Made by a program: the position numbers and the translations under genes
Notes under the pieces: generated by a model
What the model was told of the DNA's origin: nothing
What the model saw: only the letters and a program-made list of their open reading frames with translations
Databases searched by the model: none
Shown: positions 15,372 to 37,162 of the stretch, in pieces
Layout: every line of letters begins with the position of its first letter
Numbering within the stretch: the first letter of the stretch is position 1
IMG/VR virus record: IMGVR_UViG_3300049847_000663
Location: 15,821 to 79,820 of that record
Source of the DNA: a virus
Length of the DNA stretch: 64,000 bases
Reading direction: 5' to 3' (one strand)

Positions 15372-15854
15372 ATGAGTTTGATTCAAGAATTGAAAAATAA
15401 GCTAAACGAAGCAAAAAAACGGTTTTATAGCCTTAAGACCAAAAGAGCAAAGGAAAAACAACGCGACATCATTCGGGACCTTAATTTTCAGCTTGAGGAC
15501 GCTCTACTTGAAGGACTAAAACCTTACCTAAACATGAGGCATGAGGGTGTCATTGTTTCCGGTGGGACTGACGCATTAGCAAGGACTGAATTTGGTATTG
15601 TGCCGGTTTATGCGGTGAATGACCGACTAAGCAAATCGTGGTATGATACTACTTGCTGCGTGTCTTATAAGGATGGAGACAAGATCACTTTTGAAATAAA
15701 ACATCCCAACGTTGAAAATGGTCGTCTTAATTGGTTTGCCGCCGAGGTTGAGGGTGGCTCTTTAGATACAGAAAAATATAACAAGTTATGTAAACAAGAC
15801 AATTTGGCGTTCTTTAAAAAACAAGACGGTTCAATGACCGGACTATTTAAATAA
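15372..15854 (+). CDS. First early hypothetical protein
   Basis: 160-aa ORF with a strong RBS after the sigma-28-type promoter. Confidence 0.7.
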   Translation: MSLIQELKNKLNEAKKRFYSLKTKRAKEKQRDIIRDLNFQLEDALLEGLKPYLNMRHEGVIVSGGTDALARTEFGIVPVYAVNDRLSKSWYDTTCCVSYKDGDKITFEIKHPNVENGRLNWFAAEVEGGSLDTEKYNKLCKQDNLAFFKKQDGSMTGLFK

Positions 15855-24086: not shown

Positions 24087-24331
24087 AGGATTTATATGAC
24101 AAAAGAAGAAATTGAATTAGTTGAAAATGCTTTAAGACAAGACTGTCCTCCTGGAATGAAAGTTTTAGAAATTGTAACTATTCAAAATAAAGTTAAATAT
24201 TTTAATATGCCGGCCTTTTTAACCCATGTTAAGATTGAAGATGAAAAAACCGGCCTTCAAGGATCGGTTAGCCATAATACATTAAAAAGATTTAGAGAAA
24301 TTAAGAAAAAAGAAAAATATAAGGATGTTTT

Positions 24332-24844
24332 ATGAAATCCATGCTTGAGCAAATAGAAGCGGCGGGGGCTTGGGAAGATCCACTGTTTAATTCCTTGGAA
24401 CGATTTTTTTCTAAAATAAATATTCAAGAAGAAGATAGGTGCTGGGAATGGATAGGATGCAAAAACCGAAAAGGATACGGATATATCGGTTTTAAAAATA
24501 GAAACTTTTTAGCACACAGGCTTATGAAATTTTTAGCAGAACCATACGAGTTTAAAAATCAAAAACTTTTGGTTTGTCATCATTGTGATAATCCAAGTTG
24601 TGTAAATCCGAATCATTTATTTTTAGGGACTCACGCTGACAACCTGGCAGATATGTCAAAGAAAAAAAGACATTGGCTTGGAAAGAGAAGCCACTGCAAA
24701 AATGGGCATGAGCTTAACGAAGAAAACTCGCGACCTAGAAAGATCGGCGGTAGAAAATGTTTAATATGCTGTCGAAAAGCTAATGCTGCTTATAGGCGCA
24801 GACAAAAAGAAATCGCCGCGCTCGTGCCGAAGGGGGATGAATAA
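24332..24844 (+). CDS. HNH endonuclease (HNH_3 type)
   Basis: Motifs [31 protein letters not shown] and HCKNGH. Confidence 0.9.
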
Positions 24845-25077
24845 TGAGAAGTAAAGATCATTGTGCGTTTCCTATAGTTGTAGACGACGCATCAACAAAA
24901 CAAATGCTGCTAGATCTTTGCGACAAGCACAAAGAGATCATCGTGGAGTTGGTTGAAAGCTTAGAAGAAATAAACGAGCGCACTGTAGACGGGCCAGACG
25001 CTTGGCATAGAGCACAACAAGCCCTCGCAAAAGTCGAGGCGCGATTGAAACAAACCCACGGCGCGGAAGGATAGAGG

Positions 25078-25416
25078 ATGAGTAATTTACTTAAGGAAAC
25101 AATAGAATACTTAAAAAGAAACAATAAAACTCCTTCTGACGTACTTTGGTGCGGAAACACCGAATTTTATTTTTCGTGGGAAGTTTTCACAGAAATGGCG
25201 AACAAAGAATATAACGACGGCTATGGCGGTAATAACGTGCCTCTTGAGCTAAAGATCGTAGGTAAAGATTTTTGGCTTGAAAGACATGAATATGACGGAT
25301 CAGAATGGTGGGAGTATAAAGAACTTCCAATGAAACCTGAATTGAATTCCGCTCCAAATGATTTATTCTGTGGTTCTTGCGACTTAGAACCCCAAGACAA
25401 AAAGGGCGAAGGATGA
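25078..25416 (+). CDS. Conserved phage hypothetical protein
   Basis: YNDGYGG...WLERHEYDGSEWWEY motif. Confidence 0.6.
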   Translation: MSNLLKETIEYLKRNNKTPSDVLWCGNTEFYFSWEVFTEMANKEYNDGYGGNNVPLELKIVGKDFWLERHEYDGSEWWEYKELPMKPELNSAPNDLFCGSCDLEPQDKKGEG

Positions 25417-27570
25417 GTGAATCATGTACTTACTGCGAAAATAAAATCTGCGGCTGTTGCTGTGAAAACGGTAAGTTTGGCGACGGCCACGAATGTAGAA
25501 AGCAGCCTGACACCACCCCAAAGCCCACACAGAGCGATAGCGACGAAAGTCGCCGCTCCCTCGACGAGCGAAGGGATGAGCTGGCTAAAAAAGAAATCTT
25601 TGAAGCTATGTCACAGGACACGCTTGAGACGATGTTTAAAAAAGGCTGGGACGCCGCCATAACCGAGATGCAGGCGGAATTTGAACGGCTGTGTGGTGTG
25701 CAAAATTGCCCATCTTGCGGAGAGCAGATGCAATGGACACCAGACGACTACAAAACATTCAAAGCTACTGAAATAGAAAACCAAAAGCTGCGTGAGGCGC
25801 TTGAGTTTGCAATCGAATATTTAGAGCCAAGACTTGCAAATAAACACGGTTCGCGTGGCCTAAAGGTAATATTACCTGCATTGAAAAAAGTCCTGGAGGG
25901 GAAATGAGTGAGCACGAAAAGGTAACTAAAGACATAATTCCCCACGCTCAAATGATCTCTATGTACATTGGTCAGTGGCGTAGAGTTGATGGAGAATACA
26001 CCAAAGCCCTAGATCTCCTGCGCGAGGTCTCAACTTATCTTAACGACAAGATTGCAGTTTTACCTTGCGAAAGTCGCCAGCGAGATTTACCAGAGGATGA
26101 GTGGGGGCACTTAATGTTTTTAAGAGACAAGCTCGACAAGTTTTTAGGGAGAGATGCATAAAAGATGGAAATTTATAAATGTCTAGTGTGCGGGGTGCAG
26201 AACTGGAAGCATTCAATAGTAAGCTGTGAAGGATGCAAACCGCATCCTGCCGTAGAATGTATAAATTGTAAAACGCAATGGGATAATTTGCATGGAAGTA
26301 TAATTTATGAAGCGGTTTGTAAAAGTTACGGAGTGAACAACTCAAGAGATATAAATAAAAAGCTTGATGAGTTTTTAGGAGAAGGAAATGAATAAATTAA
26401 AAGAAATTATCGATAAATGGTCTCAAGAAGGAATTAGATTCCCATTCGCTTATGATAACGAAGGTGGAAAAGGAAGTGCAACTCTTTTATTTTACTACGT
26501 TTTTAGTGTATTTTTAATTATATCTTTAATTCTTCTTCATTTTAATATAGAATATACCATGGCAACTTGTGTAACAGCTATGGTTTGGATTATTTCTTAT
26601 ATTTGCTATAGAGTTAGAAAAATTGATAAGTTTAAACTAGATTTAGATGATAAGAGTCTAGAGGTTGAAGCGGATGACGCGGATTGATTTTACTAATATA
26701 TATCATCATTATAATTCAAATTTATACATTGATGAACTTGATATATTAAATAATATAATTTTTTATAAAAAGCCGGGAAATTATTTTTTAATTGGATTTT
26801 TTAAACAGGATATTGATTATTATGAATAAAGTTAAAGTATTTAGAAAACGATGCCAAAATTGGGAAGTTGAGGAGAGAATCATATTTATAACAATGTGCT
26901 ATAAAATATGGACACGTTGTGATTATACATATACTACGTATTTAGATGGTATTTTTGTTTATGATGGTGATTTTTATGGCTAAAAGAAAAAGAATTGAAT
27001 ATACAAAACACCCAGAAGATCCCAACATTTGGATTTCATGTGAAATTTCTTTAAAAAAGAAACGAGTGCGCGCTGTTATAAACTGGCATAATCACACTTT
27101 TGAAATTATGGATTCAATTGGGGAATCTGTTTTTAGTGGAGAAAAAACTGGAGAAGACTACGAATCTCTTCTTAGACGAGTTAAGCGTGTATTAATTAAA
27201 CTTGGAGCTAAAGTTGAAAAGAAAAAAGTTAAACCTAAGCAAAAGTAGTTATACTCGAATTAGAGAAGCTGCGTTAAATAGCTATAAAACTGCGGTAGTT
27301 ACATCTGACTTAACTGATGTATTTCTTTCAGCTTGTTGGACAAGCGCCGTAGTTATTGAACTTCAAAAATTAGGATTAATGGAAGAAATTGACTGGACGT
27401 CTATTGATTTAAAACAAAATATAAACGTGGAAAGTGACGATGAATAAAATTATAGTTTGTAGAACTAAAACTTTAGTACCATCGTCTTTTGATATGAAAT
27501 ATCCGGTGTGCATGATATATGATTTGTATCCATTGAACATAATAAATTTATTCAGACATGGGTTTTTCGT

Positions 27571-30177: not shown

Positions 30178-32163
30178 ATGAAACAGGAGAAAAGAATGTA
30201 CGTTAGACTTACTCGTGGCTTAGCTGATGTCGGCACCTTAATTCCTAAGAATGAAAATCCATTCAATTACATTAAAAATTTTGACGAAGATTATTATCTC
30301 TCTCTTTACGAATATACAGAAGAGCAAAAAAATCAAGCAGAAGAAGTTATTTTAATAACTGACGAAGCTAAGGGTTCAAGCTATAAAAGACAGCGCGGAG
30401 TTAGCGGAATCAACAACGTAGTTACTGACTGCTTAGCTTTTGATTTTGACTCTAAGGATCTAGAAGTTGCCCGAAAAGATACTGTAGTTTTAGTTGATAG
30501 ATTGATTGATTATGGGATTGATAAGAATTCAATTAAGGTTTCGTTTTCAGGTAATAAAGGATTCTCTGTAGTTGTTAATCATGACACCGAACTTAGTCCT
30601 GAAAAGCATAAACAAATCGCTAAAGCTTTAGCTGGAGACCTTGAAACTTTTGACACTAAAATTTATAATGCTTCTCGCATTTTTCGTTTGGATTACACTC
30701 GTCACGGAGAAACTCATCTTTATAAAACTCCTTTGAACATAAGCAATCTAAAATCATTAACGATTGATTCAATTAAAAAACAAGCAAAGAATAAAAAAGA
30801 TCCCTACTATGAAAAAACTTTAACTAAACTTCCCGAAAAACTTCTAGCAATTAAAGAACAAGAAGTACCTAAATCCTTAGTTGAACTGGACATAAAGGAA
30901 GAGATCGATTTTTCTAGTAGACCTAACTTTTTGACACAAGCCAAGTTTGTTCTTCATAAAGGATTCATTCCTGAAGGCTATGGTAATACAGCTTTTATGA
31001 TTTTAGCCGCCACTTATAAGAAAGCCGGTTTCGATAGGAACGACGCTTTTAATATGCTTTGGTCAGTTAATGAGAAACGCGCTGCTATTTACGGCGAAGC
31101 TAAAAAACGGTCTGAAGACGAAATAATGACTCAGGTTATTAACGTTGTTTACAGCGACTCCTGGCAAGGGGGAACTTATTCCGAAAAGGATAACGAGCTT
31201 TTAGCTAGCATTAATGAGAAATATCAAGTTAAAGCTGAAAAAAGCGATTCAAAACTCGTTTCTTTAAATGATGTAACTGGTATTTTTAAAGATTTTGCTG
31301 AAAATATTGATAAAAATACAATTAAAATTGGAATTAAAACTATTGATGATAATGTTAGAATGACGACTTCAATGTTGGTTGAACTATTGGCAGCACCTTC
31401 GGCAGGAAAAAGTTCTATTACCTTTGGTATCCTTGAAAGTCTTTCTTCAATGAATATCGACTCTATGTTTTTATCTTTAGATATGGGAGCGCCTTTAGTT
31501 TATCAAAGATTGGTACAAAGAGCATTAGGGTTCTCTGGAGATAAAATCTTTGCTGCCTTTAGAAATAAAGATACAGGAAGAATTCTTCAAATACAAAGAA
31601 GCGTAAGTGATAAATATAAAAATGTTAGTTTTTGTTTTAGATCCGGTATTACAGTTTCTGATATTAGATTAATGTTAGAAGAAGAGCGTAAAAACGGAAG
31701 AAATATCAAATTCTTAGCAATTGACTATTTAGAGTGTTTACAAGGTCCATATAGCGATTCTACTGCGAACAAAGGATTTTTAGCTCAACAATTAAAAGAT
31801 ATTGCTAATGATTTCGAATTGTGTTTATTTCTTTTAGTTCAACCTCAGAAGCACGCTGGAGATCCCTCAGACGAATTAAATAGTTATCGGCTCGTCAAAG
31901 GAAGCTCAGTTTTGGAGGAACAGGCCTCAATAATTCTTTCCATGCATAGACCGGGCTTTGATCCTCAACACGTTGACGACGATAATTTTTTAAATATTAC
32001 GGTACTTAAAAACCGAATGGGACAACTTGGAAGTTACGATTTTAATTGGGACGGTTTGCGCGGATCAATTACTGAAATGTCTCCAGAAGATCGGGCCACT
32101 CTTAAAACTTTACGAGAACAAGTTAGTTTGCGTAAAAAAGCAAAAGAAGAGAAGCCTTTTTAA
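30178..32163 (+). CDS. Fused AEP-type primase and DnaB-like (SF4) helicase
   Basis: N-terminal AFDFD and FSGNKGF; C-terminal AAPSAGKS, AIDYLE and LKNRMG. Confidence 0.85.
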   Translation: MKQEKRMYVRLTRGLADVGTLIPKNENPFNYIKNFDEDYYLSLYEYTEEQKNQAEEVILITDEAKGSSYKRQRGVSGINNVVTDCLAFDFDSKDLEVARKDTVVLVDRLIDYGIDKNSIKVSFSGNKGFSVVVNHDTELSPEKHKQIAKALAGDLETFDTKIYNASRIFRLDYTRHGETHLYKTPLNISNLKSLTIDSIKKQAKNKKDPYYEKTLTKLPEKLLAIKEQEVPKSLVELDIKEEIDFSSRPNFLTQAKFVLHKGFIPEGYGNTAFMILAATYKKAGFDRNDAFNMLWSVNEKRAAIYGEAKKRSEDEIMTQVINVVYSDSWQGGTYSEKDNELLASINEKYQVKAEKSDSKLVSLNDVTGIFKDFAENIDKNTIKIGIKTIDDNVRMTTSMLVELLAAPSAGKSSITFGILESLSSMNIDSMFLSLDMGAPLVYQRLVQRALGFSGDKIFAAFRNKDTGRILQIQRSVSDKYKNVSFCFRSGITVSDIRLMLEEERKNGRNIKFLAIDYLECLQGPYSDSTANKGFLAQQLKDIANDFELCLFLLVQPQKHAGDPSDELNSYRLVKGSSVLEEQASIILSMHRPGFDPQHVDDDNFLNITVLKNRMGQLGSYDFNWDGLRGSITEMSPEDRATLKTLREQVSLRKKAKEEKPF

Positions 32164-34655
32164 TGACAACAATTGATTTCGGTAAATACAAAGGTAAATC
32201 AATCTCCGACGTAGAGGAATCCTATTTACGTTGGGGAGCCGAGAATCTTAATAACCAATGGAAAGAAGTCTTTAAAAGTGAACTCGTTCTTAGGTCAGCT
32301 AAAAAGATATTAAAAAATCACAGCAATACTTTGTCAAAACTATCCGATAGAACTTATGACCCTTTAATCTTTGGTAAAGATTCCACCGAGTACATCACAA
32401 ACATTTCGTTCAAAGATAATAAAATCTACAAGTATTTATTAACTGGAATTGTTATTGAAGAAGATTACAAGCCTTGGTATTTAAATATAAATCGAGAAGG
32501 AACTAAGCTAAAAGGTCCTCAGTTTTATAATTATATTAATCATGTAGATTTTGATGAGTACGCAGAATTAAGTTCAAGATGGGATAAAAGTAAATGGTTT
32601 CCTAGAAGTATCGAAGAAGGTTACATGATGCTTACGGGGACCACTTTATTTAAAAATATGAAGATCTCAGAAGTAAGTCTTCATTCATTCGACATTGAAA
32701 CTACCGGGGTCGATCCTGAAGATAAAAACGCCAAGGTTCTTTTAATTTCAAATACAGTTAAAAAGAATGGTACTTTAACTAACAAGCTTTTTGATATAAA
32801 AGATTACGAAACCGAAGAAGCGATGATAAATGATTGGTGCGCTTTTGTTAGAGAGTCTAACTGTGACGTTTTAATCGGGCATAACATTTTTAGCTTCGAT
32901 TTACCTTATCTAGCTCGTTATGAATTAAACATAGGTCGAGATGGGAGCTCTCTTAAATTTAGCGAGAAGTCATCTAAAAAGCGTAAAGACGGAAGTCAAT
33001 CTTACGAATACCACGAAGCTTATTGTCATGGACGAAGTATTGTTGATAGTATGTTTTTATCTATTACTTATGACATCGGTCGAGCGTTTCCAAGCTACGG
33101 ATTAAAACCAATTGAAAAACATTTAAAACTAGTTGATGAAAATCGTATTGAATGGGATTTTGATAAATACCCAGCTAGACTTATAATAGACAATGAAGAA
33201 TTGTGGGCTAAGTTTCGGGAATATTGTAAACAAGATAGCGACTCTCCAATTAAGATGTTTGAAATTATGGCTCCAAGTTTTTTTTATATGAATCAATCGG
33301 TTCCTAAAACATTTCAACAAATGATTAATGAAGCGACGGGAAGTCAGCTCGATTCAATGATGATTCGATCCTATCTTCAAGACGGGAATAGTATTCCTAA
33401 GACGTCACCTAAAGTAGAGTTTGAAGGCGCGATCTCTATGGGGATTCCTGGTGTGTATACTGCTGGGCGTAAAATTGATATAGTTTCTATGTATCCAAGT
33501 ATAATGCTTGAGTACGATATTTATGATAAACAAAAAGATCCGAATAAACATTTAATTAAAATTTTAGAATATTTTAGGAACGAGCGTATTTTTAATAAAA
33601 AAAGATTTAAAGAAACTTCAGATAAATATTTTGATGATTTGCAAGGTAGCCAAAAAATTGCGATAAATTCGTTGTATGGATACCTTGGGGCTGGCTATTT
33701 GCTTTTTAATTATCCCGAAGGTGCCGCAGAGGTAACTAGACACGGAAGAGAAATTATTCAAAATGCTATTTTATGGGCAACGGGATATTCAATTAAAAAA
33801 GATATTAAAAAAACGCGTAATAAAGGTAAAGAAAACGAAGAAAACGAAATGCATTGGATTCTAGATAAAAAAATCCAAGAAGGAAAAGGCTATTCATTAA
33901 TAAATACAGACACTGATAGTATAACCTATACCAACAAAATTACCCCCACAAAAGAAGAGTTTAAAAGAGAAATTGACGAAATTAACACAACACTTCCTTC
34001 AAATATAGTTTTTGAAGATGACAGCGTTTACGATAAATTGATTGTATCAAAAGCCAAAAACTACATAATGAAAAAGAATCCCAATTGGTGTAAACCCGAT
34101 GATTTTGATCTAAACGGTAATGTTAAACTGACAATCAAAGGATCTTCTTTTAAGAGTTCAAACAAAGAACCCGCACTAAAAGAGTTTCAAATTACAGTAG
34201 TTAACGAAATGTTAGGAAACAACGATCTTAATGTTATCAAAACTATTTATAAAAAATATATAGAAGAAGCTAAAAACATCAAAGACATATCCCGATGGAC
34301 TACAAAAAAGACTTATACTGAAAAAGTAGAAGAAAGTGAACGCGCTAACGAAACCAAAGTTATGGACGCAATTAAGGAAGGTTTAGATAAAGGGGTTTTA
34401 AAATCCATTCAACAAGGCGACAAGATCTATCTTTACCAAACTATTAACGGGACTAAACAAAAGAAAGCAAAAGGAGAATTTCTTTTTTATAAGAAAACTG
34501 GCCTTCCAATAATGGAACCCAATAGAATCCTTAGACTTTATGCTTTATTTAATAATGACGCTGATTCAGAACATTACGAAGATCGAGTAAAAGCCACCCT
34601 TGAGATCCTAAGCTCGGTTTTACCTGTTAAGGAAATTATTAATGAAGATATATGA
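32163..34655 (+). CDS. Family B DNA polymerase with 3'-5' exonuclease
   Basis: ExoI SFDIET, ExoII GHNIFSFDLPY, DIVSMYPS, KIAINSLYG and TDTDS. Confidence 0.95.
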   Translation: MTTIDFGKYKGKSISDVEESYLRWGAENLNNQWKEVFKSELVLRSAKKILKNHSNTLSKLSDRTYDPLIFGKDSTEYITNISFKDNKIYKYLLTGIVIEEDYKPWYLNINREGTKLKGPQFYNYINHVDFDEYAELSSRWDKSKWFPRSIEEGYMMLTGTTLFKNMKISEVSLHSFDIETTGVDPEDKNAKVLLISNTVKKNGTLTNKLFDIKDYETEEAMINDWCAFVRESNCDVLIGHNIFSFDLPYLARYELNIGRDGSSLKFSEKSSKKRKDGSQSYEYHEAYCHGRSIVDSMFLSITYDIGRAFPSYGLKPIEKHLKLVDENRIEWDFDKYPARLIIDNEELWAKFREYCKQDSDSPIKMFEIMAPSFFYMNQSVPKTFQQMINEATGSQLDSMMIRSYLQDGNSIPKTSPKVEFEGAISMGIPGVYTAGRKIDIVSMYPSIMLEYDIYDKQKDPNKHLIKILEYFRNERIFNKKRFKETSDKYFDDLQGSQKIAINSLYGYLGAGYLLFNYPEGAAEVTRHGREIIQNAILWATGYSIKKDIKKTRNKGKENEENEMHWILDKKIQEGKGYSLINTDTDSITYTNKITPTKEEFKREIDEINTTLPSNIVFEDDSVYDKLIVSKAKNYIMKKNPNWCKPDDFDLNGNVKLTIKGSSFKSSNKEPALKEFQITVVNEMLGNNDLNVIKTIYKKYIEEAKNIKDISRWTTKKTYTEKVEESERANETKVMDAIKEGLDKGVLKSIQQGDKIYLYQTINGTKQKKAKGEFLFYKKTGLPIMEPNRILRLYALFNNDADSEHYEDRVKATLEILSSVLPVKEIINEDI

Positions 34656-36163: not shown

Positions 36164-36379
36164 AAACAAACGACATTACTTATACCGGAATTGACATTAA
36201 TGAAATGGTAAAAAAACTTAATGAAGAAAGGTCAAAGATCCTAAATGAGTTCAGTAAAGCTTATTTAGCCGAAACAGGGATTATGCCTTCAGAAGTTGAA
36301 CTTGTAACAATTCAGGAAACTAAAGATAAAACCATTGAAACTATTTGCTTTTTTCGTAAAAAACAGAATCCCTAAAATT

Positions 36380-36453
36380 AGCCTAGGCAGGTTTGCACAT
36401 TGGGCTCCTTCAAGGCCTTAATGACCTAAGTTCGATTCTTAGCTAGGCTTCCA
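36380..36453 (+). tRNA. Non-canonical tRNA or tRNA-like RNA (apparent anticodon TTC, Glu)
   Basis: 7-bp acceptor AGCCTAG/CTAGGCT, T-arm CTAAG-TTCGATT-CTTAG, encoded CCA. The D-arm is shortened and position 33 is C. Confidence 0.65.
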
Positions 36454-36461
36454 TTTTTTTC

Positions 36462-36490
36462 TTGATTCTTAATAAAATAATTGTTATTCT
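36462..36490 (+). promoter_or_regulatory. sigma-70-type promoter for the downstream ncRNA
   Basis: TTGATT-N17-TATTCT; the predicted +1 (~36497) coincides with the 5' end of the closing stem. Confidence 0.65.
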
Positions 36491-36496
36491 AATTTT

Positions 36497-36703
36497 GTAA
36501 CGTGCGGCGTGGAAAGCAGTGATACAGAGTTTAAGAAACTTACTACCCCGACCAGGGCAGCCTTGTTGCCTGACTCGAGCGGGTTCTTGTAATCAGAGGT
36601 ACACCGGAGACACGCCCCTGCAAGCTGGGCCAGAGCTGTCCCCTTAAATGGGAAAAGCGTCAGTAGTTATCCTGGGAGCAAGAGTCGCGTCTTGCCACGT
36701 TAC
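36497..36703 (+). ncRNA. ~207-nt GC-rich structured RNA of unknown family
   Basis: Closing stem GTAACGTG/CACGTTAC, adjacent hairpin GCAAGA-GTCGCG-TCTTGC, GGCGTG/CACGCC helix, no tracked ORF, followed by a T-run. Confidence 0.7.
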
Positions 36704-36724
36704 GCTTTTTATTAAAGGAGATTC

Positions 36725-37162
36725 ATGAGCAAAGTTTATCGCCATTCTGATGGAACATATAACGATTACCCAGAACAGACTATCGTAAACAGAATTCCAA
36801 CAACAGTTAATATTTATAGTACATTTGAAGAAATCCCAGTTTCCAAAGGTTTAAAATTTGACGAAAACAAAGTACCTCTTGATTTAATTCCTTATGATGC
36901 TTTAGTTGAAATTGGTAAAGTTTTACAAGCCGGAGAAAAAAAGTACGGGACTGCTAACTGGTCAAATGGAATCGAAATGCGAAGGCTTCTTGCTGCGGCA
37001 ATGCGACATTTAGGACAATTTAATAATGGCGAGGACATTGACGAGGAAACTCAAACACTTCACATAGCAAATTCTGCTACTAATTTATTATTTGCAATTT
37101 GGATGTATAAGAATCGCCCGGACCTAGATAATCGTTGGGCTAAGAAAAAGGATTCAAAATGA
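36725..37162 (+). CDS. dATP/dGTP diphosphohydrolase-domain protein (DUF5664-like)
   Basis: GLKFDENK...LIP...VLQAGEKKYG..NW..G...AAMRHL...GEDIDEETQTLHIA. Confidence 0.85.
   Translation: MSKVYRHSDGTYNDYPEQTIVNRIPTTVNIYSTFEEIPVSKGLKFDENKVPLDLIPYDALVEIGKVLQAGEKKYGTANWSNGIEMRRLLAAAMRHLGQFNNGEDIDEETQTLHIANSATNLLFAIWMYKNRPDLDNRWAKKKDSK

Follow-up and report, generated by a model that had tools for sequence, protein, structure and literature searches.

A Predicted tRNA-Shaped Phage RNA with Exchangeable Arms Represents a Large Uncatalogued RNA Family

The subject of this report is a short, GC-rich segment within a 64,000-nucleotide stretch of phage DNA, referred to here as the window, which covers positions 15,821–79,820 of an IMG/VR virus record (IMGVR_UViG_3300049847_000663) that is complete at 79,820 bp and has terminal repeats; the phage genome was found in freshwater and sediment metagenomes. 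Comparison with relatives confirms, as far as sequence evidence extends, that window positions 36497–36703 on the plus strand encode a genuine folded RNA, and that this RNA is one member of a large, uncatalogued phage RNA family. Its predicted fold is a four-way junction with nearly invariant loops and with two arms that differ widely from one member to the next.

The initial annotation, made from the letters of the window, had described an unclassified structured RNA with a tRNA-like top half, located in a GC-rich island that lacked a tracked open reading frame. The island is real, with a GC content of 0.555 at 36500–36699 as opposed to about 0.32 in the flanks and 0.339 in the whole phage genome, and the longest open reading frame inside 36497–36703 encodes at most 42 amino acids. 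All of the helices proposed in that annotation are found in the sequence, each in its proposed place: GTAACGTG at 36497–36504 pairs with CACGTTAC at 36696–36703; GCAAGA-GTCGCG-TCTTGC occupies 36678–36695, flush against the 3′ strand of the closing helix; GGCGTG at 36506–36511 pairs with CACGCC at 36611–36616; and, further inside, CAGGGCAGC pairs with GTTGCCTG and TCCC with GGGA.

Assignment of the Window Copy to an RNA Family

Taken by itself, the window copy folds no better than shuffled sequences (minimum free energy z-score 0.02 for the plus strand and −1.10 for the minus strand), and the case for an RNA therefore rests on its relatives. The fold consistent with the family has a predicted energy of −62.4 kcal/mol, compared to −64.0 kcal/mol for the unconstrained minimum. 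A covariance model (R1) was built from 22 short members that lack the P2a arm described below, with the window copy excluded. This model finds 36497–36703 on the plus strand exactly (43.3 bits, E = 6e-8, model positions 1–121 of 121), treating the 91-nt P2a arm as an insertion, and the match is the only one on either strand of the 64-kb window. The window copy has every feature by which family members are recognized, namely a P1 helix abutted by P4, the motif formed by the CG linker, P2, and loop L2, a P4 hairpin with the loop NGUMGCGN, and the R1 score. Its linker/P2/L2 motif (36505–36517 and 36608–36615) is exact and occurs in exact form nowhere else in the 79.8-kb genome, which carries a single copy of the RNA.

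The description of the RNA as unclassified has held up. No Rfam 15 family matches 36497–36703, either at gathering thresholds in a scan of the whole window or at E ≤ 10 in a scan of 36300–36800, where the sole match is a weak one of the tRNA model to a neighboring element (36380–36450). Rfam 15 scans of 26 homologous loci (E ≤ 1) likewise returned no family matching the RNA, and blastn with the region as query found nothing similar among 50,697 phage records. ARAGORN called no tRNA or transfer-messenger RNA (tmRNA) in the window and nothing in the whole genome. A tmRNA was rejected as a candidate identity, given the absence of an ARAGORN tmRNA call, of an Rfam match, and of CCA; neither an encoded CCA nor a G3:U70 pair is present, as the initial annotation had remarked, and P1 is followed directly by GCUUUUU. 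Full-text literature searches yielded no description of the motif, although the family may sit among the unnamed entries of a 2023 catalogue of approximately 10,000 viral candidate RNAs (PMC10690425). A search for antisense targets of the RNA in its own phage genome found nothing above chance.

Architecture and Covariation

The architecture was parsed from 89 full-length members, whose lengths range from 101 nt upward with a median of 177 nt. From the 5′ end, members consist of a closing helix P1 (7–9 bp); a CG linker (J1/2), the first base of which is C in 86 of the 89; a helix P2 (GCGUG/CACGC) that encloses loop L2, composed of GRAAGC, an optional arm P2a of 0–91 nt, and AGA; a 1-nt linker; a P3 region of 32–293 nt; a short linker that usually ends in A; P4, which always has 5 bp and the 8-nt loop NGUMGCGN; and the 3′ strand of P1, which P4 abuts without a spacer.

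In the window copy, all elements of which lie on the plus strand, the 5′ strand of the acceptor-stem-like P1 (GUAACGUG, 36497–36504) is partnered by CACGUUAC (36696–36703), which follows P4 without a spacer. The J1/2 linker, CG (36505–36506), has two nucleotides, as do tRNA positions 8–9, and its G36506 can also pair with C36616. The D-arm-like P2 (GCGUG, 36507–36511, with CACGC, 36611–36615) encloses the 5′ half of the conserved loop L2, GAAAGC (36512–36517, corresponding to the family's GRAAGC); the variable arm P2a inserted in L2 (36517–36607), with the base C-A-GUG/CAC-C-G and a recurrent sub-module at 36545–36584; and the 3′ half of L2, AGA (36608–36610). P3 (36616–36677) is a variable arm at the position of the anticodon arm, and its last base, A36677, covaries with L2. 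P4 (36678–36695), the T-arm-like hairpin, has the 5-bp stem GCAAG/CUUGC and the 8-nt loop AGUCGCGU.

Covariation was assessed in an alignment of 49 sequences, which had been assembled partly on P1/P4 pairing and exact P2 motifs and in which 97.2% of cells pair, compared to 71.7% in shuffles and 31–43% with slid partners. Changes on both sides of a pair affect 269 cells as opposed to 70 in shuffles, and the covariation score is 0.607 versus 0.141, a score of 0.607 being reached in none of 500 shuffles. Because this set was selected on P1, P4, and P2, separate unbiased checks of P1 and P2 were carried out. With the 5′ motif and a perfect P4 hairpin as the only anchors, P1 remains unselected, and at least five contiguous pairs were present in 132 of 138 loci (mode 7–9), whereas 94% of mismatched-partner controls show four or fewer; most or all of the four Watson–Crick pair types occur at every P1 position. 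When P4 and P1 served as anchors, the 5′ motif appeared unforced, and the P4-anchored sample contains compensated P2 variants (GCGGG/CCCGC, GCAUG/CAUGC, GCACG/CGUGC, and GACGGG/CCCGUU). The base helix of P2a, which was never selected, has a pairing rate of 89.6% and includes four pairs in which both sides have changed. The P4 stem covaries among CG, UA, AU, and GC types (98.8% paired), and its loop is almost invariant. The AGA of L2 is invariant in alignments A2 and A3, where it formed part of the search pattern, and is mostly kept in the P4-anchored sample. Covariation, the check suggested with the initial annotation, is thus found across the family in P1, P2, P2a, and P4.

A further signal concerns the tertiary structure. 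In tRNA, the second nucleotide of the D loop (position 15) pairs with the last nucleotide of the variable loop (position 48). In the family, L2 position 2 and the last nucleotide before P4 show the strongest association among the few variable core positions (A-A in 59 members, G-U in 11, G-G in 10, G-A in 6, and A-U in 2), and this covariation, located as is the 15–48 pair, points to an L-shaped fold for the family RNA in which L2 and the P4 loop (L4) would meet. Taken together, the comparisons show a predicted four-way junction laid out like tRNA.

Exchangeable Arms

Alignment of related loci indicates that the arms P2a and P3 are swapped between relatives, an observation that fits the scaffold function raised in the initial annotation. 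Contigs of close relatives in runs X4 and X8 can be aligned with the window as far as 36465, and the match resumes at 36677 or 36681; the intervening 211–215 nt are replaced by 213 or 174 other letters, while the neighbors, P4, and the 3′ strand of P1 are kept. Conversely, one relative (L427) shares the P3 of the window copy (82.6% identity over 92 nt) and has a different P2a arm. A compensated helix within P3, CCAG (36630–36633)/CUGG (36672–36675) in the window copy and CCGG/CCGG in L427, is consistent with pairing; the internal fold of P3 in the window copy beyond this helix is uncertain. Another relative (L420) shares only part of P2a, the sub-module at 36545–36584, in which an outer CCC(G)/CGGG helix surrounds a covarying hairpin with conserved internal-loop letters. 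The hairpin CAGGGCAGC/GUUGCCUG, proposed from the window alone, is borne out by compensatory changes in L420.

The same pattern extends to other members. Four loci (L142, L147, L176, and L188) have one P1 and core in common and different arms, and five contigs (L049, L142, L165, L221, and L388) carry two copies each; in L388 (4848–4977 and 5261–5384, plus strand) and L221, the closing stems of the two copies are nearly identical and the arms differ. T-arm-like hairpins are present in the P2a arms of L412, L416, and L436. In L131 (1658–1794, minus strand), P3 is a whole tRNA body (Rfam tRNA model, 31.7 bits, model positions 5–66), nested in the tRNA-shaped scaffold.

Discovery and Distribution

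Searches by synteny, using relatives of the downstream dGTP-diphosphohydrolase and DNA polymerase genes in viral contigs, gave few loci, none of which had the RNA at the equivalent place, and an exact pattern from the P2a hairpin had no matches. The first lead came when the complete records of four related phages were searched by blast with the region as query: two short matches, correctly ordered and spaced, fell in one 41-kb contig. This locus has another closing stem, identical 5′ and mid motifs, and a 3′ hairpin whose loop is unchanged and whose stem is compensated.

The motifs recovered in this way occur widely. The pattern GGCGTGGRAAGC-N36-66-AGACACGC matches 90 viral contigs, with approximately 9 estimated by chance; with a gap of N67-97, the GGCGTGGRAAGC/AGACACGC pattern matches 31 viral contigs, and 21 of these also have the full structure. 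One variant of the 3′ hairpin alone is found in more than 120 contigs among the matches listed, and the conserved motifs together recover at least 250 viral contigs. In 596 Gb of prokaryote genomes, the N36-66 pattern gave 80 matches, about 67 of them expected by chance and about 13 with the full structure. Set against the viral counts, these approximately 13 true matches indicate a strong enrichment of the RNA in viruses. All of them lie on contigs of metagenome-assembled genomes (MAGs), assigned to Verrucomicrobia, Cellvibrionaceae, Armatimonadota, Thalassospira, Dependentiae, Bacteriovorax, Rhodobacteraceae, and Saccharibacteria; 5,426 complete E. coli genomes contain no copy. The breadth across phyla fits a partner or a fold requirement common to all bacteria.

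Two cultured phages carry the RNA, the Pseudomonas phages Persinger (MT613935) and PotUPM1, whose GenBank records are unannotated at the site. In Persinger (L405), the RNA (locus 1196–1300) comes directly after the integrase gene, and beyond it lie a strong terminator, made up of a hairpin and a T-run, and a convergent gene; this member has the variant P4 loop GUUAGCGA.

Genomic Context

In the window, the RNA lies among the genes of the replication module. The gene for the family B DNA polymerase (32163–34655) ends 1.8 kb before it and is followed by an RNase H-like gene, two small genes, and a 74-nt tRNA-like element with an encoded CCA (36380–36453, plus strand), which ends 44 nt upstream of the RNA; downstream, a dATP/dGTP diphosphohydrolase-domain gene starts with an ATG at 36725, 22 nt after P1. 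The candidate sigma-70-type promoter TTGATT-N17-TATTCT (36462–36490, plus strand), whose function is presumed, ends 6 nt before G36497, the first paired base, and scores 8/12, under the threshold of the scan. The 3′ flank (36704–36727, plus strand) consists of GC, the expected T-run as TTTTT at 36706–36710, a Shine-Dalgarno sequence AAGGAG at 36715–36720, and the ATG; the scan called no plus-strand terminator.

Two other features of the window deserve mention. The tRNA-like element at 36380–36453 combines a fully paired 7-bp acceptor stem, a canonical T arm (loop TTCGATT), and the encoded CCA with a shrunken D region and a C at position 33; it scores 19 bits with the Rfam tRNA model (threshold 29), is uncalled by ARAGORN, and is kept in close relatives with three substitutions, one of which preserves a T-loop purine. 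At 24300–26150, a block of small, tightly packed plus-strand genes reaches a GC content of 0.55, higher than elsewhere in the genome. At 24366–25071, sequences close to the 5′ motif of the RNA were rejected as chance occurrences within ordinary coding genes, and the block is ordinary coding sequence, perhaps acquired from elsewhere.

Across the family, many copies are found within operons or at the 3′ ends of genes, and many are lodged between co-oriented genes with gaps of 5–30 nt. The commonest neighbor, the large terminase, accounts for 11 of 82 loci and occurs on either strand; no protein family is consistently linked to the RNA among these 82 loci. In three loci (L114, L153, and L181), a tRNA gene begins 9–15 nt after the RNA on the same strand. 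The RNA behaves as an autonomous module, which may open a transcription unit, lie within it, or close it.

The window arrangement of promoter-like site, RNA, T-run, Shine-Dalgarno sequence, and start codon 22 nt after P1 would suit a leader that acts in cis on its own transcript, by stabilizing the 5′ end of the downstream message, by modifying RNA polymerase so that terminators are read through, or as a ligand-sensing switch. A Shine-Dalgarno sequence and start codon lie within 45 nt downstream of 25 of 88 copies (28%, compared to 7% in the background), −10-like hexamers with at least five of six matches lie 4–10 nt upstream of P1 in 16% (2.5% in the background), and conserved junction and loop nucleotides combined with variable arms are the typical pattern of an aptamer. 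A leader function nonetheless appears unlikely. The downstream genes, which include Dam methylase, RNA ligase, DNA polymerase A, helicase, phosphoesterase, chaperonin, and unknowns, share nothing, and no alternative pairing with the ribosome site is evident. The Persinger copy sits behind an integrase gene and ahead of a terminator and a convergent gene; crude gene calls place an opposite-strand gene downstream of 20 of 51 copies, and a T-run follows only 29 of 89. A generic metabolite riboswitch was rejected on similar grounds, the downstream genes being unrelated and some copies lying at the 3′ ends of genes.

Covariation alone cannot separate RNA from single-stranded DNA, and the place of the window copy among replication genes, 1.8 kb beyond the gene for the family B DNA polymerase, would be compatible with a DNA element such as a priming or replication signal. 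This reading is exceedingly improbable. G-U-type pairs are tolerated on the plus strand in P1, P2, and P4, where the other strand would have A-C mismatches, and the strand of the element tends to match that of the neighboring genes (by crude gene calls, 47 same versus 19 opposite upstream and 40 same versus 27 opposite downstream). Promoter-like and Shine-Dalgarno signals occur at fixed offsets, and the locations are diverse, including sites beside terminase and integrase genes.

Discussion

Based on the comparative data, the model that we tentatively favor is one in which a tRNA-mimic core is recognized by host tRNA processing and yields a stable RNA with exchangeable payload arms. The constant core would be a self-folding tRNA mimic that the universal bacterial tRNA-processing machinery, with RNase P at the 5′ end and trimming enzymes at the 3′ end, treats as a tRNA-like body. 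What results would be a discrete RNA that resists nucleases, whether transcribed from a promoter of its own or excised from an operon transcript, and excision would also separate the neighboring messages; P2a and P3 would be the payload arms. The processing reading is based on the tRNA-like ruler formed by P1 and P4, the tertiary covariation, the copies in tRNA clusters, the breadth of hosts, and precedents for RNase P. RNase P cleaves phage M3 RNA, the C4 RNA of phages P1 and P7, viral tRNA-like structures, and mRNAs (PMC11143913), and tRNA-like "t-elements" define mRNA ends in plant mitochondria (PMC1920247).

Several observations weigh against this model. The tRNA model RF00005 has no match on 36497–36703 even at E ≤ 10, ARAGORN calls no tRNA there, no 3′ CCA is encoded, and the loops do not resemble those of the D and T arms of tRNA. 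A tRNA gene is found within 1 kb of only 5 of 81 copies. The −10-like boxes 4–10 nt upstream of P1 would imply a primary 5′ end, leaving RNase P no leader to cleave off. The 49-sequence alignment was selected in part on the pairings that it scores, and the covariation between L2 position 2 and the nucleotide before P4 might partly reflect subfamily ancestry. Finally, the near-invariance of the loops across phyla exceeds the needs of shape recognition and may point either to a specific partner or to a catalytic core.

A specific partner would be expected if the RNA were a trans-acting decoy or sponge, whose core, especially its two invariant loops, titrates one conserved host factor that handles tRNA-shaped RNA, with the arms tuning specificity. 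Candidate targets are a processing or modification enzyme, a ribosome-associated factor, or a tRNA-directed defense nuclease. The near-invariant loops in phages of many phyla, a tRNA-like shape that lacks the D and T loops of tRNA, the several copies in some contigs (L142, L165, L221, L388, and L049), the promoter-like box that some copies have of their own, and the lack of a linked protein gene would all agree with this function. Yet the many copies wedged between co-oriented genes with gaps of 5–30 nt are more typical of operon elements, and a sponge is on balance unlikely. The more specific suggestion in the initial annotation, a decoy for anticodon nucleases, fares poorly, because P3, the arm at the anticodon position, is the least conserved and contains nothing resembling an anticodon loop.

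If the loops instead formed a catalytic core, the RNA could be a self-cleaving ribozyme of a new class, in which the two conserved loops dock as the active site and cut the phage transcript. With the four-way junction stacked, L2 and L4 would come to lie close to each other, and a small invariant core with variable arms, a broad range, and intergenic sites in phage operons are in keeping with such an activity. However, models of the hammerhead, twister, hairpin, hatchet, pistol, and HDV-like ribozymes are unmatched in the window copy (E ≤ 10) and in the 26 homologous loci (E ≤ 1), no candidate cleavage site is defined, and the tRNA-like junction lengths and the 15–48-like covariation are explained without catalysis, which makes a ribozyme very unlikely. 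The probability left after the processing model and these four alternatives belongs to functions not imagined here.

A broader reading is possible, though doubtful: one universal tRNA-shaped scaffold, used by phages across bacterial phyla, would be loaded with fast-changing RNA modules (small recurrent motifs, T-arm-like hairpins, and even whole tRNA bodies). Through it, variable RNA effectors (sponges, aptamers, or decoys, for example) would reach any host, and recombination at the constant core would let phages trade modules. Were this true, phages would possess a natural equivalent of the "tRNA scaffold" that has been engineered to express RNAs stably. The constant core and swappable arms suggest an RNA-level analogue of the accessory-gene slots that operate in phage–host conflict, and the RNA could possibly serve as a portable scaffold for expressing RNA in diverse bacteria. 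More generally, if the processing model holds, the family would be a major class of phage noncoding RNA, with at least hundreds of copies in phages of many bacterial phyla and a conservation like that of a ribozyme or riboswitch core. It would also represent a second, independent solution to the tRNA shape, with other loops in the same architecture, and would inform both RNA structural biology and the question of what tRNA-handling enzymes actually read. Since two cultured Pseudomonas phages carry the RNA, the question is now open to experiment.

Comparison with tRNA and Other Known RNAs

The tRNA-like top half proposed in the initial annotation stands as far as the layout is concerned, with P4 abutting P1 as the T arm abuts the acceptor stem, but does not extend to the loops, which are unlike those of tRNA, or to a match with the tRNA model. 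As in tRNA, a four-way junction is predicted, a closing stem of 7–9 bp sits directly on a 5-bp hairpin, and the linkers measure two, one, a few, and no nucleotides. At the location of the 15–48 pair, the identity of the purine in L2 position 2 varies together with that of the last nucleotide ahead of the T-like stem, although the pair types (A-A, G-U, and G-G) differ. In contrast to tRNA, the D and T loops are replaced by GRAAGC...AGA and NGUMGCGN, the loop of the T-like arm is 8 nt long, a large arm may grow from the D-like loop, and P3 is free-form (32–293 nt), and the family can therefore be said to have no anticodon arm. By these comparisons, the loop sequences are the family's own and distinct from those of tRNA. 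Mimicry of the GTPase center of rRNA, mimicry of the signal recognition particle, and a K-turn reading of L2 were weighed by consensus sequence and dropped, since none has the support of an Rfam model and the arrangement of the strands misfits a simple K-turn.

Among phage RNAs, the antisense C4 RNA of P1 and P7 and the M3 RNA resemble the family in being phage encoded, noncoding, and endowed with tRNA-like features (PMC11143913). The shape of C4 and M3 allows host tRNA-processing enzymes to define their ends; for the new family, the same may hold by analogy. Unlike C4 and M3, with which it has no sequence or model similarity (an Rfam scan that included the C4 family was empty), the new family has exchangeable arms and is far more widespread.

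Proteo-phage-1 (RF03044) is likewise an orphan phage RNA and shares a noncoding slot with some family members; it differs in having 82 model positions, two hairpins, and another sequence, and is thus a neighbor rather than a relative. Its model has no match in the window. It was observed at L029 7056–7136 (plus strand, 71.7 bits) and L082 7178–7256 (minus strand, 59.4 bits), about 200 nt upstream of short-form members on the same strand; these phages thus string different orphan RNAs in one noncoding slot.

GOLLD and ROOL are large RNAs of phages and prophages, often near tRNA genes, and GOLLD can enclose a tRNA. This enclosure resembles the L131 member, whereas both RNAs are several times larger and of unrelated structure; the GOLLD and ROOL models of Rfam match neither the window copy nor the examined homologous loci. 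The YrlA Y RNAs are modular, with paired ends and a tRNA-like module that keeps real D and T loops. Paired ends and a tRNA-like module are found here as well, but the new family lacks real D and T loops, Rfam gives no match to YrlA, and the phage genome contains no Ro (TROVE) or RtcB gene. Mimicry of tRNA by phage and viral RNAs is already known; what is new in the present family is the combination of loops of its own, swappable arms, and a very wide spread.

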